This document shows, in pieces, positions 7,600 to 35,497 of a DNA stretch of 64,000 nucleotides (the stretch's first letter is position 1; each line of letters begins with the position of its first letter). The stretch comes from Yuukianura sp. NJ FZ-2021 (lineage: Eukaryota), in the NCBI GenBank assembly GCA_046563655.1, contig CM102286.1, positions 2,728,001 through 2,792,000 on the forward strand, read 5' to 3'. The position numbers were made by a program, and so were the translations under genes. Below the pieces are notes generated by a model, which saw only the letters and a program-made list of their open reading frames with translations, ran no database searches and was not told the DNA's origin.

Positions 7600-10595
7600 T
7601 ACATATACGAATATGATCTGTGTTGCTTTTGCACTAACGCCTTAGCACAAACCACAAAATTTGATTTCCTGTAAACAAAATATTACTCAAAAAGCTCGGT
7701 CCTTTTTTGAAATTTTTTAGAAGAATTCTAAAGTTGATAACTAAAATTTGTTTTATTCGAAAGTTGGCAAAGGTCAAAGTTGTAACAGTTCAGCGCAAAA
7801 TTCTTGAAATATTTTTTAGTGGTGAACTGTAGACTATGAATTCACAAAATTGTTATTGCTGTGTGATGTGCATCTCCGATTAATTTTTTTTTTGAATTGA
7901 AAAAGAAACTATCAGACTTCATCATGTATAACGCAATGCGTTGAAAAATAAAAAATAAATCCCCAACTTCGATATTTACTCAATTTAATTGACAACGCGA
8001 AGTCAATAACACGTTTTTTTTCGTTGAGCACAATGACTTAAGTGTCCGCAAATTCGACAGAAATTGCGAAACAAAAAGTCCTTTTCAGATGAAAGAAAAG
8101 TGGTGGATAAGCTTCTTTTTTTGTTTGTCTTGCTCAATTTCTTTCCGGTTTGTTAAAAGCTTCCACTTTTTCTGTTCACTGCTTTTGATAAAGTAACTAA
8201 GGCAACTTCTGTTTAAGTTTTAGTCACAACTAAAAGAAAAACCTCTTAGGCTATTGTTCAAACTAGTCAAAGAGTTGCATGCCTTTTTCTTTTTCAAGCT
8301 TCACTAACTACTCCAACTATTTCGTAGATCGAAAACACGTTTTTTGAAAATGTGTTCAAAATATTTGTTGCGCGTGCAGCTAACACAAGTTTGATTTCTT
8401 TTTAAAAATAGACGCCACCAGAAGCTGAAAAATTTTCTAAATTGAAAAACAATTTGAGAAAATATTGAAAGCTGAAAATATTGGAAGTTGTTTTAAATCT
8501 TATTCCCTGAACTGGTTATGGTGTTGTTGAAATTTTCGAAAGTAGTTGTAAAAACCAGCTTCTACGTAACTTTAGTATCTGGGAAGTTTTTTTTTATCTG
8601 GGAAGAAATTTTTAAATTTTGCAAAGATTCGATTAAGCTGAAAAGGAGGTACTTAGTAGCTAAAAGGCGCGATTTGAAAACTTCGAAAACTTAATTTTTG
8701 TTATTAGATTTCTGCAAAACTAAAAAACTACGTTGGTGACCAAAAACATTAAAAGTCTGAAACCCTATTGCAAAAAAAATCTTTGCAAGCTAAAGTTTTG
8801 TCATTAGTTTGAAACAAGCTAAAAACTATTTTGTGTAAACATTACACAAACTCATTTTACTTTTGGAAGAGGAAAGAGGAATTTTAGGATAGGCGTCAGA
8901 GGTCAACTTAAGAAAACTTTAATTAATCCAATCCCTTAAAGTTTAACATAATTTGGGGGCCCTTAAGCTTTGTCCTGAACCGTTTGACTTCTTTTCTCAG
9001 AAAATTCTCCTCAGAGTCAAGATTTGTTGAGGAAATTTGAGCCAAGGGAGCCCTTTGACATAAAAATAATTAAAACCTTCGACCCGCTTTCTCCTTTCTT
9101 CTGGTGGTTGGACAGAACAGGGCAGGAATGCAACGAGGCGGACAGACAAAGCAGTCAACTGGATAACAAAAAAAGTCTAGTTTAACAAAAGACTAGGATA
9201 GTAATATATTCTTTTGTGAAATTTCTGGAGATGAGAGATCAGGACATCACGCGTCTTTAATCTAAGACCATTTCAATCTTCCAAAGTCAGAAAGTACAAA
9301 ACACGGATGTCAAGATGTTTGAGATTTTAAAAAAACATGTCCAATTTCAGCTGTCTGTTCCAGAGAAAGTTTCAAATGTGGCTCAAGAGCCGACAATTGT
9401 AACTTGACCAAATTTTATCAACTTTGAAACTTCCAATTTCAAAAGCATTACTTTTTAACTGAAGCGTACAAAAACCTGCGCACTTCTAAAATCACTTTTT
9501 GTTTATTTGCTGAATTGTGAGGGGAAAATAGTTTCATAAAAAAACCAAAAACCAAAATGATTGTTTTGCATCAGATTCAGAGTTCTCAGCTAAAAAGTTA
9601 TGTTTTCCCCTCCATACTTTTAGTTGTCACCAGGAAAAAAAATTCGAGTCTGCAGGTTTTCGTGCCCCTCACTGCAAATCTTTGTTCAAACCTTAACTTT
9701 TCATTTTATACTTTTTTGCTTTTGTTTAAAAACTTTTGTTATCTGAAGTCTTTTGAAGAGGTTTGGAGAAGTTTGTCAGTTGGAAGAAATAACTTCATCT
9801 TATAGTTTTCATCGGCTGTTGCGATTTGACCTCAAAGGGGACTACGAATTTCTGGAATTCCTTTGACTTTCACTTTTTTTTTAAAACCCAGACAGCTTTA
9901 TCTGGAGTTTGAAAAAATAAAAAAGTAAAAGTAAAATTCGTCTAAATTCTTCTGTTTATCTTGGAGTTCTTAAATATTCCTCAGCTATTTCCATGTTTGC
10001 TCTTCTTCTAGATTTTGCCAAGTGGAAACTTTAACTAAACCTAACCAAAAAAGTTATCCATTTGGAAACATGAAGAAAATTTCCACGTGAAAGTTCTTTT
10101 CTCCACTTTAGTTATTCTTTCTAAAAACTAAGTGGCGTGTTCACCGTAGCTTAAACGGGAGAAAGTGGAAAAAGCGACACATCATCGCTTATCGACTTGA
10201 TGGGATCATCAAAAGGGCAGTCATTTGTAAACTCATAATGAACCCTGTTAGGCCCGCAGTCACGAGCCCATTAGTGTCACCTCCTTCAGCACAGAAGTGG
10301 AAGTTAGGCTATCAGGTTAGCTTTGTTAGGTTAACTTGAGTACCATACAGATTAAGTTAGGTGTATAGAAAATGATAGGTTGGAATCAGAAACCATTAAG
10401 GCTTATAAAACCAATTTGACCTCCAGCGTTTTCGTTGCCGCAAGCAATTTTGTTTCGCCTTCTTCCGATATCGTTTTACATTGGTTTTTGCTACGGGGCT
10501 ATTCGAGACTTTGGGAAAACTAACTTTTAGGTTATCCGGGTGATTACTTTGGAGGAAAATGAAGTCAAGGGCTTTGTTTCTAGCCTGGATCATAC

Positions 10596-10755
10596 CTTTA
10601 ATAAAGTCCAAGCTCTCCTGGAGTCCGCGTGTGTCCGTGTCACAGTCATCCAGAATGTGGACTCCGAGTTCAATTCCAGGCAGGATTTGTCCATTTTCCT
10701 TTGCGTTGATGTAGTCTACTGTGTACAGCATTGTTTCCAACGCCTGGATTCCGCC
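10596..10755 (-). CDS. mtt: Class C GPCR (mangetout/mXR-like, mGluR family), coding exon 2
   Basis: Bounded by ttgcag| and |gtatg; encodes GGIQALETMLYTVDYINAKENGQILPGIELGVHILDDCDTDTRGLQESLDFIKG. Joins exon 1 in phase 0. GGIQALE and HILDDCD are typical of insect mXR/mtt. Further exons were not found in 1-10595 and probably lie left of the window. Confidence 0.85.
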
Positions 10756-10827
10756 CTGCAATATATCGTAAAAGTTCAGACTCCCGAAGCAGCAACTTGA
10801 CATAGAAACGGAGGAAAAAAAGTTTTG

Positions 10828-11068
10828 CAAGGTCCCTTGACAACCGAATTGTACTTCCTACCACAGGTTTTCCAATAACTCAGGGATTGCAAAAAAAAAA
10901 TTGCTTCAAATAACTGTTTTCCCCAGTTTTCCCTTAATTCCAATTGCTGACATGAAAATAATTACCACAGGAAAAAAGTTTTTCAAATTTTTTAACAAAA
11001 TGAAACACATCGAAAAATTGGACAACCTGGTGTAGAAAAAAACTTTTTTTTTTTGCTTACGAACCTTG
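10828..11068 (+). mobile_element. hAT-like MITE, family 1-related, with perfect 8-bp TSD
   Basis: Termini CAAGGTCCCTTGAC...GAACCTTG, flanked on both sides by AAGTTTTG (10820-10827 and 11069-11076). Confidence 0.85.
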
Positions 11069-18794: not shown

Positions 18795-20734
18795 CTAGAA
18801 AGGATTCAAAAGCCCAATATTTTATCCATGTTGAAGTTAAATTTTTACAACACTTTGAAGCCAGTCAAAGATTTGAGCTCAATTTTTTTTACTACACGTT
18901 GGCTAAAGAGCTAGGCACAAGTTCAATCAGATATGGCGTCGTTTTTAGAGTGACCTTGACATGCACAAGAAAAATTTGACACATTTCAAAAATGAAGTTG
19001 TTAGAAAAGTAGAAATTTTTAATTTTTCATTCGTTTTCTTCTAAGTAAGTAGCAAAAAGCTAAAAAAAAGCCTTAGAATATTGAAAAACTTGCCGCAAGG
19101 TGAATAAAATGTGTATAAAGTGATTTTCTGGAAAGAGGATTAAGAATACCCGGGTATTAGTGAAACCTGTCGCCTAAGGGCTGTATATCCCAAAATTTTG
19201 AGTGCTGGGAAACTGGTTTATAAAGCGAGTGGCCGCAAAAGTAATTTTGCGAATAAATTGATCCGATTTTCTACCAAAATGTGTCTAGAATCGGCCAAAT
19301 TGGGCTTGTGGTCTGAACGGTGCTTTAGTTTATCTTGGTAACCAAGGTGATTTATGAACAGCAGAAAATGGAGGGCAGAGAAGCTCTTTTTTTTGGAAAG
19401 CTGCTTAGACCCGCTTCTCGTCTTCCAAAATTGTGTTTTTGGAGAGAATGAAAGTAATGGAAGATAAGTTGGTTATATTGTTCTTATGGAAATGGATAAT
19501 GGTGACCTTAATGGTCTGAACGTATGTGGAGATGCTTCTTTAGCGCCATTTTGATCCAATGAAAGTAGGATTTTGCCGCATTCAACTTCAAGTTGAAAAC
19601 AAACATGATGATGATGATGATGGTTTGAGGGAGGAGAAAGTGAGACCGCATTTTCCTCCCATTTTCAAGAAAAACAAAAAGTATTAAAAGAAAACAGCGA
19701 GGGATATCGCTGGAGACGTTTTTTCTTACCCGGGTAATTGAAAGTTTGCGCTGCTCGCAGCGTTCCAAAACAAAATAAATGCAATAGATGCAAGAAATAT
19801 CATTTCCTTGGTCATATTTGACCCCGTTCTTCTGCATAATTGAACAATTTTCTCCTATATAAATTATGTTTTGACAAACCAAGTTATTGGTTTGTCCAAA
19901 AATAATCACGATTTGTGATTTGCAAAAACGTCATCTTCAAATTAACTTTCCCTTCTCAACGAAAAAACAACTTAAAAATAAGCCCGACTTTACGTTGGAG
20001 TAATATCTAACGACTCTGTTCTTCCTCAAGGAGCCAAACAGTGTCAAGAACTTGACGTTGACACTCTCAAATTAGAAATCAAGATCCGAGGTCAGGTTGA
20101 TTCTAGCAACTCAAGGTTAAATTGGTTGGAAGTCATAGTCAACACTATTTTCAAAATGAGACATTCAGTTTTAATTAAACTTCGTCTCTAATTGGACTTA
20201 TGAAGCTCTGAACCTACTTTGAACCTAGCGTTAATTTCATGTTTCATGTCTTTTAAGTGAATCCTTTTTTTTAGTATGCAAGAACCACAAAGACACTAAA
20301 TTGTACCACTACGGAAACCAATTGCGTTTAGTATGTAGCTCAATTTGTGACTTCCAACAGTGTTTTCCCCCGATTTTTGTGTGTGCTTTGGAATGTGACT
20401 TTTAAAGTTTAAATCTTCGTATACTGTTCAGAATGTTTCGAGATTACTCACGATCAGTTTAAAATGACGCAAACAATTGCCCTACTTCAGACACGGAAGC
20501 TCAATTTGTAAAAATTTGGCAGTAGTATGGTACAAGTATTCCCTTTAAATTTAAGTAAGTAGACATTGACGTGCGTGGAATGATAACTATGTTATCGCTT
20601 CTACAAACAATGACTTTAGATAAAGCACTTTAAACATTTCACCAGTGTATTCAATGCCACTGGAAGTAAAAGAGTTTGCGCAGAGTTGGTGCAGTTAATT
20701 TCTGAAAGGCGAAAAATATTTTCAAAATTCCAAA

Positions 20735-21751
20735 ATGGCTCATTTTTTGAGCCCAATTGTGTCGTTAGTCCTTATTGTAGCCTCAACCAGTTATGGACAA
20801 CAGTTTGTGCTCCGTAGCAACACAGGCGCAGGAGACTCTTCCACAGTCATAGGAGTTTTAGGCTCTAAAGTCGAGTTGCCATGCGTCGTCGACGTTTCTG
20901 CGCAAGATCAGCACTTCATCTGGCAGAAGAAGCTGAACGAAGATACTTGGCTTGACATGGCCGAACTCTGCGAAGAAAATCAAAGATGCAAAGTCATTAC
21001 AGAAATTGGATCGGGAAATTCAAAAAATATGACCCTCGTTTTTCAAAAATTGCGCCGATCCGATCTGGGCACTTTTTCCTGCGGCGTTCCTCTGGATCGG
21101 TCAACAGCTGATGTCCGTTCGATTGAACTTGATCCAAACGTGTACCTTGTCCTGAAAGAACCGGTTTCGGTAGAACACGAATTTCCTTTCGGTATGACCA
21201 GTCACACGGTACTGGTCGGTGACGACCTAACGTTAAGTTGCCACTTGACACGTGACCATGGACCAGTGGAAGATCAACAATACCGTGTCCGGTGGTGGAT
21301 TCTTGGACAATGGCGGAATCCTTGGGATCTTCCTCCGACACAGTACGGCTACGACGAATCGACGGAATTCTCGAACCTAACACTCAAGAACGTAACGATG
21401 GAGGATCGTGGAGAATACGAATGTATTCTATGGAATGCTCACAAGTTTCCGGAATTCACTCCCGACAAAATTGAAGCTAGGTTGTCCGATCATGAAGAAG
21501 AGCCACCAGTGATCTTGGTTCGAGTCAAGGAGCGCAATCAGTGGGAGCTTCCGACGATTACAATTGGGGTTGAAGTTGCTCTGATTCTCATTATAATGAT
21601 TCTGGTTGAAACGACGAAGTTGCTGCCAGACGGAGACAATAGTAGTGACGGCAGTACTGATGAGGAGCTCAAGGCCATTCGCAAGCACAATACAGCCTAT
21701 TTCGAAGAAGACATCCAACCAATGTCACATGATGAAGGCAAATCCATGTAG
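20735..21751 (+). CDS. Basigin-like two-Ig-domain single-pass membrane protein, intronless, 338 aa
   Basis: Signal peptide; two Ig domains (LPC..W..DLGTFSC and LSC..W..DRGEYEC); VRVK followed by the TM segment PTITIGVEVALILIIMILVE with the intramembrane Glu typical of basigin/neuroplastin; acidic tail. AATAAA follows the stop. Confidence 0.8.
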   Translation: MAHFLSPIVSLVLIVASTSYGQQFVLRSNTGAGDSSTVIGVLGSKVELPCVVDVSAQDQHFIWQKKLNEDTWLDMAELCEENQRCKVITEIGSGNSKNMTLVFQKLRRSDLGTFSCGVPLDRSTADVRSIELDPNVYLVLKEPVSVEHEFPFGMTSHTVLVGDDLTLSCHLTRDHGPVEDQQYRVRWWILGQWRNPWDLPPTQYGYDESTEFSNLTLKNVTMEDRGEYECILWNAHKFPEFTPDKIEARLSDHEEEPPVILVRVKERNQWELPTITIGVEVALILIIMILVETTKLLPDGDNSSDGSTDEELKAIRKHNTAYFEEDIQPMSHDEGKSM

Positions 21752-23346: not shown

Positions 23347-25878
23347 TTATTTCTTGATCGTGTTCTGAGGCGCGACTGGTCGAAACTTCTGAGTTCCAAC
23401 TGGACAGAATCTGGAATATTGTGTTCCGCGTGGAAAGATTCTAAGATCAGTCACTTCATCAACGAACTTTGCCGAATATCGGTACAGAAGGTAGTCGATC
23501 TGTTCCTCTGAAAATTTAAGTGAAAAAAATTGTTATCGCCAGTAAGTTTAAACTTTGTACAGCAAAACTTACGATCCAAAGCCCAATCTGGAACAACTTT
23601 GTCAGCTCGATGTTCAAGGGCCTCCTCGTCATAATCCGCAAGTAAAGTGATGTCGTAACAAGTTAGCTTGTTCTCCTTGTTTTCTTTAACTTCTTGATGC
23701 ACTGGAGCCTTAGGTGTAGGCGGAAGCAGAAATAGACCATCCGGTGTCCGTATGTCCGACATAGGCATCTCTTCGTCTTCATGTCCATCATCATTCAAAA
23801 TCATACCGCTCAAATCTTGAACGACTGAGCTGAGCAAACGAGCATCATTTTCAGACTCCTTGATGACACTTTTGGAGCTTGATGGCACGGCATCAGCTGA
23901 GTTAGTGAAAGAAGTCGGTTCTTTTTTAACCATAGCGGGTACAGGCTCCGCCTTCTTTTGAACTGACGGTAAATTGACAGTAATTTCAGCGTTGGGAACA
24001 AGAACAGCAGCAGTTGAACTGGTGGTTTCCACTGGAATAACATAAGTTGCATCCAGTACATCGTTGGCATTGAAGGTTAAGTTGTTGACAGTTGGAACTG
24101 GAACTGACACAGCGGGAGCTACAGGTTCTGGTTCGGGAGTTGGAGCTTCCACAACTGGCGGTGGTACTGGTGATTTGATCTTCTTTGTGACGTTTTTAGC
24201 TTTCTTTGACGCATCGTTACTCAGCTTAACACTGTCACCTCGCTCTTTCAGTTTCTTCTTTACTGGTTTCTTGGAATCCGCATCCATAAAGTTAAATTTT
24301 GGAGCTACAGTTACAGTTGGCTTAACACGAACCGGAGAGTCAACATCAGTGTCGGGTGACCTCATGCGTTTCCTTAGTACATTGTTCATCTTGAGTTTGG
24401 CTCTGGTAACCCGCGATTCATCTAAAAAGAAAGTCAAACACTTTCAAGTCTATATTGTCATTGTCACCTAACGGTCTAAAATTACCATCGTAGAGATACA
24501 TAAAAGTATCAGTTACTTTTACCTTTGAGAGTTGCAACACGTAGTGGCGTTGTTGGGTTGAATCCGGGAGTCATTACTCGGGTGGCCTTAATCTTTTTCA
24601 CTTTACGACCACCTTTGTAGACAAAAGTAATCGATATTCGATAAGCTAACAATTTAAGCAAAAATAAAATTAACTTACTTTTTGCTGCCTTGACCATCAT
24701 TGGACTGTTTTTGAATACATCCTCCCTCTCATCCTTCTTGTTGGTAGCCTTCTCAAGGAGAGCTTCCAGCTCCAGTGTGTTTTTCTGTTTTCATAAAAAG
24801 AAAGTAAGAAATTAAACGGTTTTCGTTTTAGTCACTTTGTAAGTTCGTACTGTTTGTAAGCTTGGCTTCTGGCTTGTGCCAAAAGCAGTGTGAAGTCTGG
24901 TCTTACCTTATGAACTTCCATCATCTCATTGCGGGATGCAGCAGAAGAACATACGTCAGAGTACTCAGTCAGGAACATTCTTAAGTTTTCTCCGTCTCGG
25001 TTCTTTCGGCCGGTTCGGCCTGCCTTAGCCTTGGTTTCACGCCCTCCTGTTTTGGCTGTCGGAATAGGAACAGGATCAGTATCAGCTGTTTGCATTACTC
25101 TCCCACTCGGTCCTTGTTCTTGGGATTCTGCTCTAACATTTGGGTTTGGCTTGTTCGTTGGCTCTGGCTCGTCAATCGCTGGTTTCGACTCGGGTTTAGG
25201 CTTCACAGGCGCCGGTTTATTAAACAGTTCTCCGGTTTTAGTTGGAGCCGATGATCCAGTTGGCTTTTGCTGTGGTAAAGTAAATTTAGATGAAGGTTCC
25301 GTTTGTGCTGGGACTTGAGCAGGTGAAAAGGCTGGTTTAGACGTAGCTTCCTTTGGCAATACTTTTGCAGCAGCGGAGTTGCCCAAATTAGTTGATGAAG
25401 ATGATGATCCTCCACCTTTTGACACAGGTTTAGAGAGCGGTGCTGGTACATTCGCTTTTGATGAAGATCCTGCAGTAGCAAGGTTAGAAAACGATCCGGA
25501 CCCGGCTTTCGTTGCTTTGGATAAGGACCCCTCTTTTACCACCTTATTGGTACCCGCAGTACCTGCTGCAGGCAAATTAGTAGACGATCCCCCTACTCCC
25601 GCGCCGATTTTCAGTTTAGACGAGGGGCCCTTTTCAGACAGACACGGAGATGATACTGCACTGGCTATTTGCGGTAGCCTTGGAGCAGCTATTTTGAAGC
25701 CGGTAGGTGTCCCTGTCGGTGGTGGTAACTTTGATTTGGATGTATTAGTATGATGCTTGGCCTTAGCCGCTGGACGACCTCGCTCGGTTTGTTGACGTCG
25801 CTCGGGCTGTTGACCCCGCTCATTCTGACTCTGGTTGGATGAATCCTGAGCTCGTGACTGTGACCTCGTAACTGGCAT
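23347..25878 (-). CDS. Low-complexity S/T/P/K-rich protein, possibly a divergent INCENP-like protein; about 725 aa, 5 exons (25878-24907, 24784-24679, 24612-24523, 24421-23573, 23507-23347)
   Basis: Phase-consistent GT-AG junctions give one open frame of 2178 nt. Contains a RVTRAK motif, many S/T-P sites, tandem KEN (KENKEN) and YDIT...YDEE...KVVPDWA, which resembles the start of an IN-box. The gene is well supported; its identity is tentative. Confidence 0.6.
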
Positions 25879-26516
25879 CCTTAAGAAAGAAAGCACATAA
25901 TAAGTTTAACCTAAATACATCTAAAATGGAGTCCATATTACTGTATTTTAGTTTATAATTTTGCGAATCAGTCAATCAATCACCATCACGAACTAAATAA
26001 AAGATGGCTGATTACCCGTCACGATAGCTCCCACGGCCACAATATGATCCTCCAAGATTCCGGATTCGGATGACAAGACAGACAGACGACAGCGACAACA
26101 AGAAGATGAAGAACAAATAAAAAATGAACGATCAAATAAGAAATTGGTATTTCCGTGAAGACAGGCAAAGCAACAGGCAATTGGGATTGAGAGGGAAAGA
26201 AAACTGAACCGACAAAGGCTTGGTTCAACTAAAAGTTACTCGGCAGAAAACCAAACTCAATCATAGCTGCGCATCTTTAAATTTATCAAACTTTTTGTTT
26301 GAAATTTTTTTTATAAAGAAACAGTTTTTAAAGTTTCATTTTTTTGAAATTTATGTTTGAAAACATTTAAATGCATTTTTAATTGTACTAATCGGATTCT
26401 AAAAATAACTTTTTATTTTAATGCCGTTCAATCCACTGCTTCAATTCCAAATGGACGCCCGAATTTAAACTGTCACATAAATTTGTAATTTTGATAAAAA
26501 TTGTTTGTCAGTTTTT

Positions 26517-27239: not shown

Positions 27240-28569
27240 GATTTTCAACTACTGTACTAAATTTTGAACTTTTGGTCAAACTGCGTTTAAAGCCTATGAC
27301 TATTCTAACGTGCCAACAGTAGTCACGACTAATTGAAAACCTTCATTTTTATTTCATTATTTAGTTTCAGATTTTAATCAAAAGGTTCAACTTTTTTGTA
27401 AGAAGATTAGATTAAATTTAGCCATTTGGAATTGTGTCAGAGTAAAGTACAAAGTATTTGAAACCTTTTTATCAAACACTTATATTTTGCGAAACTTTCA
27501 GCTCTATCCAGTTTTAAGGTTTCTACTCAAATGTTAATACAAGCAATTATTATTGAATGATATTTAAATTTTACTTAAAATATTAATGCAAACTAAGATA
27601 AATAGATGCAAACAACTTTCATTTTTAAATTGAAGTTGTTTGTAAATGTGGAAGTTATTGTTTACGCTAATTTCTTACTATCTAGTGCCTAGACTTGGCA
27701 CTTCCGGCAAAATTTTTAACGTAGAGTTTTTAACGTTGCGTGTGTTGGAATAACAATACTGTAAGCACAGTGTTTTAATTTCTAGTAAAGAGAAAGGCAA
27801 AAAAAAATTGGCGAATCGGCGTCACTTTCACTTCGGTGGAATTTGTACTATGGAAGTTAATCATGCAAAATCTTGAGTAAAACAAAACGTTCCAGATTTT
27901 TTTTTAAATTGAAAATTGTATGTAAACACCGTTTTTTGCATTTAATCGTAAAAAATCAAGCATAGAATTACAGAAAAATGCGTGACACAGTCTATCAACA
28001 GATATATTGTTGCAAAGTTTGTTTTTCTTTTTTTCTTAGCGGACTTGTCCTTATATGTCAAGAAAATGTGGGCATGTACAAGTACAATCCAGCTTTAAGA
28101 ATGAAAAGATCGGGCATCGCTACTATAGTGTGGTTCCCTTTCAATAAAGATCTGACCCATTTCTGGTTTGTTGAGACTTCAAGTTACGTATAGCAATCAT
28201 CCAGCAGGCATTTATATTCGCTCGGAAGACAAAAAAGTTGTGTTTGAAAAGCAGGTTTTACTATGGGGGATTACTAAAGTTTAGGGTAAGACATGAAGAC
28301 ATGAAAACATTATGACAAGTCGAAGATTATACAAGGTTAAAGTTTATTTAAAGATAAACAAGTCATACAGTTTAACTCTTCGCTTGATCTGAAGTTTGAT
28401 GCAGTGTCAACGTGTAGGCATTTAGTAGTACAATGTGCAATACGATACAAGACTACATTAATTCCAAAAGACTATAGAAGACTATAAAATTTTCGGAGTC
28501 AAGCTGTAGACGCTAATGCGTTTTCATTTAGAATTCAGTTCAAAGCTACAAGAAACTTAACTGACGACG

Positions 28570-30504
28570 ATGTCGTCCAACTCAGCAACCTCTTCTGAAG
28601 ACGACCAAAAAGTAAGAATTTAAAAAAAAAGTTACAATTCTAGCGTATTTTTGTAGGACTCATTTTGATTTCATTTTCCAAAACTTTTTGTTTTGTATTC
28701 AGAGCGACTTTCTTTCAAACGCGGAATTTGCCGGAAGGTTACCGCTTGTAACCAAACTACGAATAAGAAATTTCATGTGCTTCAGGTCCCTTGACCTGAA
28801 GTCATTGAATCAGACTTCAATTCCTTACGAAGGGGGAGGAGGTGACGGCAAAACAGCTTTTGTCATTTCTATGTTACTAGGACTCGGCTACGACTGCTTG
28901 CTGGAGAATGAAGACACAAAGACGCTTTGTGGGTTTCAAATTGCAAGTAAGGACGTTTTCTTAATCAGAATACAATTTTGTTCAAAAAATTGGAAAAACT
29001 AAATTTGAAAATACATTGTTTTTAACTTTAGATGTTGTACGCCATGGAGAAGCAACTTCTGTCTTAGAAACAACAATTTCCCTACAATGTTCCGAACATT
29101 TGATGTCAATGTTCGGGCCTTACATGACAATTCAGCGTATAATTTTTAAAGGGCAACCCCTTAACAAAAGTCCAATTCAATTGGCAGCTTCGGATTCGGA
29201 GGGAAATTGCTTCGAACCGAAGAAACGAGTTACGGAAACCGAACTTCGGATGACCTTGGACATCCTGGGAATCTCTCCAAAGTGGTTTCGTCTGATGCTT
29301 TTAGACGAAACGAACTTAACTCACCTTATTCACCATCCGTCCGAATGGTTAGTTAAAGTTTAGATAAAGTTTGACCTTTGACATGAAATTTCAATACATT
29401 ACTGAAAACTTAACTGAATTTTACTTACAGGTATGAACTGTATGAACAGAGTTTTCTGTTCACAAAAAGAAAACTTCTCAAAGACTTTCTAGCTTTTGAA
29501 AGTCACATTGAGAAAATGGAAGGCGACCTGCACTGGAGATTGATAGTAAGAAATTATTTGACTTGAAAAAAAATTATTTTTTTAAGAAAATTTTTAAAAT
29601 ATAGCCGTTTTTTATTTTAGGTTGACAATCAGTTGAATACTCAACTGGAACAACCATTCCTGGTGGATTCTCCAATAACCATAAGAGATCGTGAAAACGA
29701 TATACGGGCAATTACCAAAATTAGAAATTCCATGAGAGCCATCGGAACAGAAATTGACGTATGTTTTTCATATTGAAATAATTTAACAATGATTTTAATT
29801 CAAAATTTTCACGAATTTTGAAACTTAAAAAGTGTGGTATTGAAAAGTGTTAATTTCAGTTTTTTTACAGTCATGTCGCAGTGTTCACGAAATTTGCCGG
29901 AATGAATTGGAGGAGCTCCATATTACCTTCCAGTACAGGATCTCCAAAATCTTCAGAAAATTTCTGAACAGTCAGCAATTAAATGCAAGTGCTCTTCAGA
30001 AATTAAAAAAATGCAAAGATATGTTAAATCATCGCTTTTCATTTTCGAATCTTCCAGGGCGACGTAGTAATAGATCTCAACCAGAAGAAAATGGCCATTT
30101 GGATCTCGAATTCGAGTAAGGAGAGTTCACCAAGGACAATGTAAGTTTTCTGAATTTACAAAAATTTGCTGACAGTGACCTTTGAATTCAACTTTTTACT
30201 TGCTTGTTTGGAATTCAACAGAGACGAAACGCAATTGATGTGGGATAAATTGCCAATTTCAAGAAAGAAATTGGCAATGACTGGTCTCTATCTGGCTCTG
30301 TGGGAAGTCAACGAGAGTTGTCCCATCTTCATAGTTGATTCGTCCAGTCAAAGTGCAACGGAATTTAAACTTCCACCGCCAGTATTCAAAATCTTTCGGG
30401 AATTAATGGAAGAAAAAAAGGCGAATACGAGAACAAAACATCAGCAGTTCTTTTATACTACAAATGCCTCCTCAGAAGTTCCACTTATTGAGCTCAGCGA
30501 TTAA
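28570..30504 (+). CDS. Head-only SMC6-like protein, 444 aa, 8 exons (28570-28611, 28703-28946, 29032-29347, 29431-29545, 29621-29758, 29871-29984, 30058-30140, 30222-30504)
   Basis: The spliced frame is open for 1335 nt. N-head: LRIRNFMCF, Walker A GGGGDGKT, LLGLG, VVRHGE, FGPYMTIQRII. C-head: GDVVIDLNQKKMAI, LYLALWEVNESCPIFIVD, QQFFYTT. These match SMC5/6 head motifs, SMC6 best. Confidence 0.8.
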
Positions 30505-30847
30505 CTAATCTTGTCAATACCAATTAGACTTTCATTAAGTTAAGACAAATACAATTACAAATTTGATATTTTTGTACGCGGTAGACCAACGTTTACGCTA
30601 AACTATGCTACTTAATTAAGTACAAAGTTTTATGAATTGTTGTGATCAGATGCAATAAATTAGTCCGTAGATGCACACAAAATAACGTATATTTGACAGG
30701 CCATGCTGACAATACTTTCAGAGACATAGATTCAGTTTCAGTTTTACTTTTTATAGTCTATAAATTATATGTTATTGTAATAATTTGGTAAATTTTATTG
30801 AATTGATGGAAGAAAAAAGTCACGTGAATTGGTTGTTACAACGTAAA

Positions 30848-31304
30848 CTACCCGGAAACGTAGTAGCACCTCCGTCGACGTCGGTAACTATTACAAACAG
30901 TTCCATATCGAATTGGTTTGTATCTTCTGTGACGATATGGAGAGCGGGAATGGTGGCGATTTCGAATTCGTCTATGTTGGCGTCTACTGTCATATCGAAC
31001 ATGGCGTCCCAAGCTTCTCGTAATTCGTTGGAGTACTAGATTACTCTGGAGTACTTTAGAAACAAAATTATATAATCTTACATTTAAAAAAGAAGTTGGC
31101 GCAATTTTTAGAAAGTTAAAATTTTAGAAGTTTACCATTTTCCTTTTCATGCTGGAGGTTTATACCATGGTCGATATCTTTTTGAGGATCAAACTTGTCA
31201 TTTTCGTACTTTTGCGTCGGAAGCCAATTCACTGGAGTAGAAAATGCTGTACAAAATATTGATCCTAGCACGACAGAGAATACTATAAGACCATGTCTCT
31301 CCAT
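30848..31304 (-). CDS. Secreted prepro-peptide with Arg-rich mature region, 124 aa, 2 exons (31304-31136, 31053-30848); candidate antimicrobial peptide
   Basis: Signal peptide, acidic pro-region, G|gtaaac...aag|TA phase-1 splice, furin site RITR, then SLGRHVRYDSRRQHRRIRNRHHSRSPYRHRRYKPIRYGTVCNSYRRRRRCYYVSG*. Confidence 0.75.
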
Positions 31305-31363
31305 TACGAAAAGCGAATTCCAAAGTCTGTAACCTTCGCGCGAATTTTTGTGCTCAACACTCC

Positions 31364-31370
31364 TTTTATA
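31364..31370 (-). promoter_or_regulatory. TATA box of the Arg-rich peptide gene
   Basis: TATAAAA on the minus strand, about 60 nt upstream of the ATG at 31304. Confidence 0.55.
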
Positions 31371-32073
31371 ACGCCACAACAATTGAAAAGTGAATAAACT
31401 CTGAAAGAGTTTTAATACGAAGCTTTTTTTCCAAATCATCTCGACAATCGCAATTTTAAAAGGAAAACAACATAAGGAAAACCTGTTTTTAAGAATTTCA
31501 GTTTCAATGGAATCCTACGCTTGTGCCAAAATTCATAATGTACAAAAGGATCTGTAATTTGTAGATCTATGGGGTTGGTGACCTCTGACTTGTCACTTCC
31601 GAAATAATAACGTACTCAAAATTTCAACAGCGAGAGTTTTTCCGGCAAAGTTTTACTTTCTATAGCATAACATTATTTGAGTGGATGTTGACAGGCATGT
31701 TGCAGGTTACTTCCCTAACCTAAGACTTTCGTACTTAAAAATCCATAAATTGGGATCCGAAAACCGGTTTATGTTCAAAAGTGTGACCATAATTTGTTAT
31801 TGTGGTTTAAGGGGATGATGGATCTTGTTCATTTTCATCTCGGTGGTTCACAGGTTCCTAGTATGTGGGCGGCATAACACGAAAATTTCATACTAAAACT
31901 TTTGTTTTTAATCTTAAAGTCCAATGATCTCTGACTTCTTTGAAATATGAATACTAAGAATGTGCTCAAAAACTAGAAGTTAAAAAATAGGAAATGTCAA
32001 AAAGCAGAGTTAAATGAACTGAAAACTTAAAAATCGTAGTACAGCGCATGAAAAGGTTTATTTGCTTTGTGGA

Positions 32074-33476: not shown

Positions 33477-35497
33477 CTAAGAACATTCAATCGGGCTTCT
33501 TTTCTGTGGTGAATTGAAAGTTGAAATACGTGGGCAAGGGAATGAGGATCCGTCAAAGCTACTTTCACTGCTGCTGTCTGAATGCTGTTTCTGGGGACTC
33601 ATGCTCATGCGCCCAAACCGTCTCAGGATTCTGGACATTGAGAACCTTCTCTTCGGTGGTTTACTAACAGCATTCACAATAAAACTGAAACTTTGTTGTA
33701 CTTCGGGTGAATTTTCAGCGACTGACAGTTCGTAAAATTGAATTCCAAATTTCGAGGCCAAGGAGACGCCATCTTCTCGCTCAACGGCTCGCACATGAAC
33801 CAAATCACATTTGTTGGCAACGAGAGTCACTGGAGGCAGTACTGAATAGTGGGCAGAGAGCATCGAAAGTGCTTGAGTGGCAAATTCAAATGAACTTTTG
33901 TCTGTAATGGAGTAGGTGAGAATGATCCCATCACAAGGTACTTCAGACAGAGGAACTCTGGGGGTTGAAATATCAACTATTTCCAGTTCCAAATTAGGAT
34001 TTCCAGGCAGAATCTGATGGTAGACCATGTCTAAAATTTAAACAAAAACAAAATTGTTGATACTTTTTCATCATAAACACAATTAATTTTTAAGACTTGT
34101 TTTTCTGCTGACAGTTCATGAGTTATCACCAGGTTTGTTTCCAAAAACTTTTCTGTTTTTGAGAAAGTTGCAAACTTGTTGACTCATTTCAGTTTTCCAA
34201 AATTTTCCGCAAAAACTAAAACTAGCAGACCACCGGAAAGCATAAAAGTCAGAACTTTTTGATGGATTTGTTCTTCCGATTTGTTTTTGTTACGGTTCGG
34301 TTGAATTTGAATTTTAAGGAGAAAGGTTGTAGGTCACGGGATGTTTTCGTTAGAAAACCTTGTCTAGTGTAGTGTGTTTTTGAAAAAGTTGTTTAAGTTT
34401 TAAAACCTTGGAATTTTTGAAGTTGAGGGACCTTGTACTAAACAAGTATCCAACAAAGAATCCATTCTGCACTTGCTTTGGCATTACGAAAAGAGTTTGA
34501 AGGGGGAGTGACAGAATAGGCGTTTCATGTTGAGGTTTTTCAAGACATTTCAAATCCCACTGGAATTTAGATCAAAAAAATATTGCTTTGCACACTTTGG
34601 TTTGGAAATGATCCAGGAATTTTTGTGAAACGGTGAAGGTTTTCACATGGCGCCGTCCAAGTATGTATGTTACTTTACATATGTTCGAAATGCTACAAAA
34701 TAAATTCAACAGTTGAAAAAAAGAAAATTTCATTCATCCGATTTACAAAATCACGACAACTTTTCAGCCTTCGCAAAAAGTCAAGAATTTTGGAAAACTT
34801 TTTGAATATTGAGAAGCATATGCGGCGCCAGACACAAAAAATTGGGACATCTAAACAAATCTTTCCTCAACTTTTGAAGTTATCATCGTAGTATCAAGAC
34901 GAATGAAAAAAAAACAATTTTTTTCAAGTTTTAAACAATTTTGACGCAATTTTCTCTTAAATGTTGGTAAAATGGGACCACACTGGAGCCTTATGTAAAA
35001 TTCATGAATCTATCATTTGGAAAAAAGAAATTTGGAACCTTTCGGTATAATAAAAGCAAATCTTTAGCTTTTGAACTTTTTTTGACATACTTTTTGAATT
35101 TAGTTTCTTATTGTGTAGTTCTTGCGCGTGTTTAAATCTATTTTGATGTTCAACAAGTTTGCAATAGTAAGACAATTTTTAGAAAACTGCCAAACTTGTG
35201 TATCTTGGTTGAATATAAAATTTTTTCACCTGAATTCGAGTTGTACTCGCCAATGAAGCGTTTTGTGAGGTACCGGACTGTCAAAGCTAAAAATTCAAAA
35301 ATTAAGAATTACAATTTTATACAACTACTTATATACAACTACTTCAGGAAGTGTCAATAAAATTAAAAAAAAAGAGCTCAGCTCAAAATGCATTCAGAGA
35401 AAGTTATTTTGAAAAACAAATTTTTACCTGTTTTTCCAACCTGCTTGCCACCAATCACAGATATCCGAATTTTTGCTTTTTCGTCGGAACCCTTCAT
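33477..35497 (-). CDS. RERG/RASL11/RASL12-like small GTPase, 226 aa, 3 exons (35497-35428, 35286-35230, 34030-33477)
   Basis: MKGSDEKAKIRISVIGGKQVGKT|ALTVRYLTKRFIGEYNSNS|DMVY...ILTYSITDKSSF...VANKCDL...FYELSVAE. ALTVRxLTKRFIGEY is characteristic of this subfamily. No CAAX box. Confidence 0.88.

Follow-up and report, generated by a model that had tools for sequence, protein, structure and literature searches.

Short SMC-like heads with a short coiled coil or none are well known from bacteria, where RecF and RecN are catalytically competent and keep their signature and Walker B motifs intact. To our knowledge, the sole head-only SMC derivative described as regulating an SMC complex is SMCL-1 (C44C10.4) of Caenorhabditis elegans. 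According to the available part of the source paper, SMCL-1 is a negative regulator of condensin that binds the condensin SMC proteins; it has neither hinge nor coiled coils, and of its ATPase motifs Walker A is retained, the signature is imperfect and the Walker B glutamate is missing; a 'poison head' mechanism was proposed (PMC5373644). The same part reports that loss of SMCL-1 partly rescues a condensin hypomorph and that its over-expression is lethal, names SMCHD1 as another truncated SMC relative, and raises the idea that similar partial SMC proteins might have arisen independently in other species (PMC5373644). In this study we analysed a 64,000-nucleotide stretch of genomic DNA from Yuukianura sp. 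NJ FZ-2021 (the whole stretch is referred to below as the window), which carries at positions 28570-30504 of the forward strand a spliced gene for a 444-amino acid protein, the mini-SMC, whose N-terminal half is homologous to the head of the chromosome-repair protein SMC6. A preliminary description of this gene had stated that no eukaryotic protein of its architecture was described; SMCL-1, as presented in the part of the source available, provides a precedent (PMC5373644), and the statement does not hold. In a full-text literature search, the SMCL-1 paper (PMC5373644) was the sole relevant one, and no SMC6-derived head-only protein was found described.

Compared with SMCL-1 as depicted in that part of the source, the window protein apparently has a similar build and a different parent. 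Both proteins are short, comprise both halves of an SMC ATPase (the second half being a predicted assignment in the window protein) without hinge or arms, keep Walker A, and have an imperfect signature and no Walker B Glu. However, SMCL-1 binds condensin, whereas the family of the window protein matches SMC6 and SMC5 and no condensin SMC, the two proteins being compared by description only. In addition, SMCL-1 has no predicted coils, whereas the window family has a putative helical stalk of about 120 amino acids; the family has no GG at the signature position; and SMCL-1 is reported from a subset of Caenorhabditis, whereas metagenomes contain members of the window family from at least two further organisms, in which they are probably fused to zinc fingers. 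The N-terminal half of the head, including the NFMC strand and Walker A, is shared with canonical SMC6 (7tve, 7qcd, 8i4x, 9lwi), but the canonical proteins are 1091-1157 amino acids long with a hinge and long arms, whereas the window protein has 444 amino acids and a 122-amino acid linker and lacks the signature motif, the Walker B Glu and a recognisable C-terminal half. RecF and RecN differ in being prokaryotic, whereas the nearest sequences to the window family are eukaryotic SMC6 and SMC5. SMCHD1, too, derives from part of an SMC protein and has a non-canonical role; it retains the hinge only, whereas the window family retains the head only.

Gene structure and homology of the N-terminal half to the SMC6 head

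The gene is composed of eight exons, which splice into a frame of 1335 nucleotides and 444 amino acids with no internal stop; the introns measure 73-112 nucleotides. The features are as follows.

28570-28611, forward strand: exon 1, amino acids 1-14; ATG at 28570, donor AAA/GTAAGA
28703-28946, forward strand: exon 2, amino acids 15-95; first strand RNFMC at 28766-28780, Walker A GGGGDGKT at 28832-28855
29032-29347, forward strand: exon 3, amino acids 96-201; remainder of the N-terminal half of the head, with MLLDE at 29295-29309 at the presumed Q-loop position
29431-29545, forward strand: exon 4, amino acids 202-239; putative ascending helix of the short stalk (neck), 115 nucleotides in all three genes compared
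29621-29758, forward strand: exon 5, amino acids 240-285; putative end of the first helix, Pro-containing turn QPFLVDSP at 29651-29674 and start of the return helix
29871-29984, forward strand: exon 6, amino acids 286-323; putative descending helix of the stalk, 114 nucleotides in all three genes
29985-30057, forward strand: intron 6, GC-AG (GCAAGT...CAG), 73 nucleotides; donor AAT/GCAAGT
30058-30140, forward strand: exon 7, amino acids 324-350; predicted beta-hairpin, start of the C-terminal half of the head
30222-30504, forward strand: exon 8, amino acids 351-444 and stop; LPISR at 30250-30264, IFIVDSSSQS at 30325-30354, C-terminal QQFF strand at 30442-30465
30654-30659, forward strand: AATAAA, a possible poly(A) signal by pattern match only, 150 nucleotides past the stop

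An in-frame TAA is present 12 nucleotides 5' of the start codon of exon 1. The eight exons and the 444-amino acid open frame of the preliminary description were confirmed, provided that intron 6 is a GC-AG intron, on which this frame depends. Two alternative splice models with GT-AG introns throughout are likewise open (model B, 437 amino acids; model C, 460 amino acids) and were discarded, as their reading of exon 7 has no counterpart in the relatives of the protein. The 444-amino acid model was chosen because it agrees with these relatives, namely short open reading frames (ORFs) P0001 and P0006 and the two tandem genes of locus L001, all from metagenomes: P0006 and P0001 run through the counterparts of exons 7 and 8 without a change of frame, which matches the frame-0 exon 7; in both L001 copies an intron with a GT donor interrupts the gene at the place, and in the phase, of intron 6; and the size of exon 6 is the same. 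The position of the phase-0 intron preceding the first head exon is also common to the window gene and both L001 copies, exon 3 can be aligned with the L001 copies from end to end, and the Pro-containing turn of exon 5 occupies the equivalent place in the three genes. No second copy of the 444-amino acid protein was found in the window by tblastn, and scans of it for Rfam families and tRNA genes gave no matches.

The N-terminal half is homologous to the SMC6 head. When exon 2 was compared with the PDB, 6 matches were obtained at E<=10, five of them SMC6 (E 0.12-0.14) over the NFMC strand and Walker A and the sixth a designed repeat protein; a phmmer search of the PDB with exon 3 gave a single unrelated match (E 1.9). 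The N-terminal half of L001 copy 1, encoded in one 177-amino acid ORF, matched yeast SMC6 at 2.3e-4 and SMC5 at 5.6e-3. A profile of the N-terminal halves of the three genes (window and two L001 copies; profile A2) was then compared with the PDB, condensin structures included. At E<=10 it retrieved 15 sequences, of which 5 were SMC6, 4 SMC5 and 6 others: yeast SMC6 scored 1.2e-9, human SMC6 3.1e-6 and SMC5 about 8.5e-5, the others (OLD, PtuA, Rad50) had E-values of 0.16 or worse (0.43-0.82 for Rad50), and no SMC1-4 chain was among the matches. The N-terminal half modelled alone by AlphaFold2 (AF2) had a mean confidence score (pLDDT) of 51.6. Using this low-confidence model in Foldseek, chains from Smc5/6 entries occupied 10 of the 11 top rows, with a best E-value of 1.4e-3 and weak TMq values of 0.33-0.38. 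Language-model look-alikes of the N-terminal half were N-terminal fragments of the Rad50/SbcC/SMC_N/AAA_23 type (0.95 for Rad50/SbcC/AAA_23 clusters), and the best Pfam match was AAA_23 (8e-5, under its cut-off), with SMC_N (RecF/RecN/SMC) at E 0.25.

The C-terminal half yielded no recognisable SMC match. Exon 8, exon 7 and P0006 each gave 0 matches in phmmer searches of the PDB; the C-half profiles A1 and A4 retrieved only carbonic anhydrase (E 0.17 and 0.85) and no SMC; and Pfam returned no match on the C-terminal half and 0 families for the 8 members of A4. Modelled alone by AF2, the C-terminal half had a pLDDT of 54.0, and Foldseek with this low-confidence model returned 7 unrelated rows with E-values of 3.2 or worse. 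The order of elements predicted in it, again at low confidence, is a hairpin, helices, a stretch with the hhhhD motif (h, hydrophobic) and a helix, and in the exon-7-equivalent piece of L001 AF2 predicted strands E2-6 and E11-15, also at low confidence. Because of its position, this predicted order and the invariant Asp of the hhhhD strand, we infer that this region may represent the second half of an SMC head. The SMC6-like head of the preliminary description was thus borne out for the N-terminal half by profile A2, and not for the C-terminal half, for which no significant SMC match was obtained; similarly, the Foldseek comparison with SMC5/6 heads that it had proposed was positive, weakly, for the N-half model, whereas the C-half model matched unrelated proteins.

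All the motifs quoted in that description are present in the 444-amino acid protein. GGGGDGKT (amino acids 58-65) fits the GxxGxGK[ST] pattern of an intact Walker A; L001 copy 1 also has a complete Walker A, whereas that of L001 copy 2 is shortened. MLLDE (amino acids 184-188) and LPISR (amino acids 361-365) are assigned to the Q-loop and the signature by position only, as no SMC alignment reached these residues. LLLD is found at the presumed Q-loop of all three genes. At the signature position, LPISR, TPQGK and TPHDF are not conserved even among family members, and none of the three genes has [LFIVM]SGG in the C-terminal half. In IFIVDSSSQS (amino acids 386-395), the putative Walker B strand reads IFIVD-S: the residue that follows the Asp is Ser or Ala in all five family members seen, and the catalytic Glu is therefore absent from each, as had been noted for the window protein. 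The C-terminal half of the window protein, about 120 residues long, lacks a D-loop as well. The Asp of the hhhhD strand and 13 other columns of exon 8 are invariant in the four-sequence alignment.

Between the end of the N-terminal half (W201) and the first strand of the C-terminal half (G324) we measured 122 amino acids, in line with the earlier estimate of about 120; the corresponding linkers of the two L001 copies have 129 and 116 amino acids. With introns of at most 112 nucleotides, such a linker leaves no space for a hinge or long arms, and the absence of a hinge was likewise upheld; none of the 7 exon translations searched matched a Pfam family, hinge families included, at E<=10. In all three genes the Pro-containing turn of the linker is flanked by Pro-free stretches (about 50 and 65 amino acids), which suggests a short helical hairpin, i.e., a neck.

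Relatives, haplotypes and selection on the reading frame

To identify relatives, exon 8 was searched with HMMER against 1.84 billion representatives, and 7 proteins were obtained at E<=1e-3. Three of these are true relatives: P0001 (112 amino acids), P0002 (72 amino acids) and P0006 (130 amino acids), all metagenome ORFs that are 35-43% identical to the query. P0003, a repetitive 508-amino acid protein, was set aside, as were the long proteins P0004, P0005 and P0007; in these four only about 20-30 query residues were matched (20-22 in the latter three), in several stretches. Hence, this search of 1.84 billion representatives returned three short metagenome ORFs and no full-length relative. Word-based homologue searches with exon 2 and exon 3 returned nothing, and exon 8 retrieved no usable match from the atlas.

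When metagenome contigs were scanned with alignment A1, one locus was identified, L001 (8425 of 9906 bases, 43% G+C), with the following features.

L001:19-792, forward strand: C2H2 zinc-finger ORF 5' of copy 1, ending at the phase-0 donor 792/GTAAGT
L001:891-2575, forward strand: copy 1, mini-SMC head (splice model)
L001:3415-4561: further finger ORFs
L001:4562-5101, forward strand: C2H2 zinc-finger ORF 5' of copy 2, ending at the phase-0 donor 5101/GTTAGT
L001:5181-6843, forward strand: copy 2, mini-SMC head (splice model)

The locus belongs to another organism and carries two tandem copies of the head, whose splice models give 414 and 406 amino acids. These are 30.4% and 32.2% identical to the window protein and 35.0% identical to each other. 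The intron positions that the window gene and the two L001 copies have in common are in the same phases. Because the L001 copies share the compact architecture and the introns at 30-35% identity, the family is old and the compact build ancestral. On other contigs, P0002 resembles L001 copy 1 and P0006 resembles copy 2; as these ORFs pair with different copies, the duplication seems to be older than the split of the organisms concerned.

Each L001 copy is preceded by a zinc-finger ORF. The two ORFs are homologous (31% identity, E 8e-14), and their Pfam zf-C2H2 matches are mostly below the cut-off, some near it. The first head exon has a phase-0 acceptor, which lies 98 nucleotides past the finger-ORF donor in copy 1 and 79 nucleotides past it in copy 2. 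The first head exons of L001 begin without a start codon, and the residues before the first Met are conserved between the genes. Because of the matched phase-0 splice signals, the missing start codon and the conservation of these residues, a zinc-finger-head fusion is likely in both copies. The window gene has its own 14-amino acid first exon in place of the finger ORF, and tblastn of the L001 finger ORFs against the window gave nothing at E<=0.01. Within L001, the zinc-finger-plus-head unit is tandemly duplicated.

We asked whether the compact gene is present in other assemblies of the locus. A 26,104-base contig (X2 record 8) covers 27698-32000 and contains no large insert, differing from the window by 114 substitutions and 63 gap letters. 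The compact gene is hence shared by a second haplotype or individual; the assembly deletion of hinge exons that the preliminary description had held to be fatal to its reading was thus not seen. Most exons are also covered, at roughly 90-99% identity, by contigs of X5, a run from a different study and with a different organism label. Variants were then assigned to exons and introns, the counts referring to 40 of 500 differences and 12 of 108 indels. Among these there were 12 exon variants, all in exons 2-5, of which 10 are synonymous and 2 non-synonymous, whereas 78% of random changes in exons 2-5 are expected to be non-synonymous (binomial P 1e-5, or 7e-4 with transitions only). None of the 12 indels lies in an exon; the three within the gene span sit in introns 2, 4 and 5. 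Among the same differences, intron 2 has 12 vs 4 in exon 2 and 4 in exon 3. Because of the 10:2 excess of synonymous changes and the absence of exon indels among the variants listed, the frame is under purifying selection on the basis of this partial list, and the intact frame, which had been taken earlier as a sign of selection, is supported as such. Taken together, these results demonstrate that the mini-SMC gene is a real, conserved animal gene, neither an artefact nor a relic.

Over 27400-32000, 206 contigs of X1 were collected: 72 at >=99% identity, 64 at 95-99%, 54 at 90-95% and 16 under 90%. From this spread, the sample carries several diverged haplotypes or individuals. Two contig joints were also encountered. 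The joint 28327>29474, found in a single small contig with a 34-letter side, was taken as spurious; the joint 28690>28937 (X2), which skips 246 bases corresponding approximately to exon 2, has a shorter side of 22 letters and is probably spurious.

Possible functions and alternative explanations

The best explanation of the data as a whole, which we hold with a little better than even confidence, is that the mini-SMC is an SMC6-derived head with a short neck and binds SMC5/6 components without being catalytically active. The two halves would pack together as a single head of the SMC6 type, from which a short coiled-coil neck (roughly 50 residues in each strand) would project. In the window protein and L001 copy 1 at least, the Lys and Thr of Walker A and the Asp of Walker B may still hold nucleotide, but such a protein should support neither ATP hydrolysis nor the canonical signature-to-ATP sandwich. 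It could bind the N-terminus of NSE4, NSE5/6-like loaders or the SMC5 head, and might thereby titrate, cap or redirect the SMC5/6 complex. This role is proposed by analogy with SMCL-1 and on the ground that NSE4 and NSE6 dock on the SMC6 neck: according to the available part of a 2024 review, the N-terminal domain of NSE4 binds the SMC6 neck, where NSE6 competes with it and regulates the ATPase (PMC10954462). In its proposed role the window protein would resemble NSE5/NSE6 (SLF1/SLF2), which, in the account given by that part of the review, modulate ATPase activity and loading at the interface between the SMC6 head or neck and the kleisin (PMC10954462); it differs in that NSE5 and NSE6 are unrelated neck-binding folds, whereas the window protein would mimic neck and head. 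Weighing against an SMC6-derived head, the C-terminal half is tied to no SMC by sequence, and by fold weakly.

This divergence of the C-terminal half past recognition would fit a neofunctionalised pseudo-ATPase head, used as a protein- or DNA-binding module outside the SMC5/6 pathway, for instance as a zinc-finger-tethered chromatin factor of which the window gene would be the fingerless version. The homologous C2H2 ORFs that precede both L001 copies with matched phase-0 splice signals point in the same direction. However, the window has no such ORF, the fusion in L001 is deduced from splice signals, and the SMC6 features kept in the N-terminal half argue that an SMC-type surface is still used; we regard this explanation as possible but rather unlikely. 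A more far-reaching version of the SMC5/6 reading, which we put forward as doubtful, is that SMC6-derived 'dead heads' form an unrecognised family, parallel to SMCL-1 on the SMC5/6 side. Through fusion to zinc fingers in some lineages, the mimic of SMC6 head and neck would be attached to a sequence-specific DNA binder, which could bring SMC5/6 to selected loci (for example repeats, foreign DNA or germline-specific chromatin), poison it there or trap its NSE4 or NSE5/6-like partners, with the window gene as the free, untethered form. That the gene might instead be an SMCL-1 orthologue or family member, and hence a condensin regulator, is improbable. It shares with SMCL-1, as described, the short length, the presence of Walker A, the lack of a hinge, an imperfect signature and a Walker B without Glu (PMC5373644), but among eukaryotic SMC proteins the N-half searches match SMC6 and SMC5 only, never SMC2 or SMC4, and the exon 8 library search gave no full-length relative. 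Moreover, that part of the source reports SMCL-1 only in a subset of Caenorhabditis and uses a search pattern that requires GG at the signature position, where the window protein has none (PMC5373644).

The remaining explanations deny either the SMC parentage or the gene itself. An origin from another ABC-type ATPase of the Rad50/SbcC/RecF/RecN kind would account for the language-model look-alikes among Rad50/SbcC/AAA_23 fragment clusters and for AAA_23 as the best, below-cut-off Pfam match, but is very improbable given that profile A2 scores SMC6 at 1.2e-9 and Rad50 at 0.43 or worse and that the NFMC strand aligns with SMC6. We attach equally little weight to a decaying relic of an SMC6 duplicate that has lost its middle and is open by chance. 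Catalytic motifs are indeed lost, the 5 sequencing runs listed for this stretch include no RNA run, and the single exons have no Pfam matches; yet the 10:2 ratio of listed synonymous to non-synonymous exon variants, the lack of listed exon indels, the persistence of the compact build and of the intron positions in paralogues that are no more than 30-35% identical and the invariance of the Walker B Asp and 13 other exon-8 columns in four sequences all argue for a maintained protein. An assembly artefact, in which a normal SMC6 gene would have lost its hinge and arm exons through collapse, is least credible of all: nothing in its favour was found, the 26-kb contig of the other haplotype spans the locus without insert, the contigs of the second study cover most exons, the two L001 genes have linkers of 116-129 amino acids, and the window introns are no longer than 112 nucleotides.

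SMCL-1 was hitherto regarded as a peculiarity linked to the presence of three condensins in some Caenorhabditis. A second SMCL-1-like family, traceable to SMC6, conserved at 30-35%, duplicated and possibly joined to zinc fingers, would change this picture. If the SMC5/6-binder reading is true, poison or decoy heads would be a recurrent evolutionary answer to the control of SMC machines, and the mini-SMC would offer a natural probe of the SMC5/6 head/neck-kleisin gate, the regulation of which is still being worked out according to the available part of the review (PMC10954462).

Genomic surroundings

The window has about 36% G+C. Neighbouring ORFs at 20699-21751 (forward strand), 33477-34037 (reverse strand) and 10396-10857 (reverse strand) encode immunoglobulin (V-set/Ig_3), Ras-family and ANF-receptor domains, so the window is animal DNA; these ORFs have no apparent link to the mini-SMC gene. 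Two long ORFs on the reverse strand, at 24832-25905 and 23451-24443, lie in the sole stretch of raised G+C (0.445), which also has a strong AT skew (-0.16). A 357-amino acid translation from this stretch matches no Pfam family and is of low complexity, rich in Ser, Pro, Lys and Ala.

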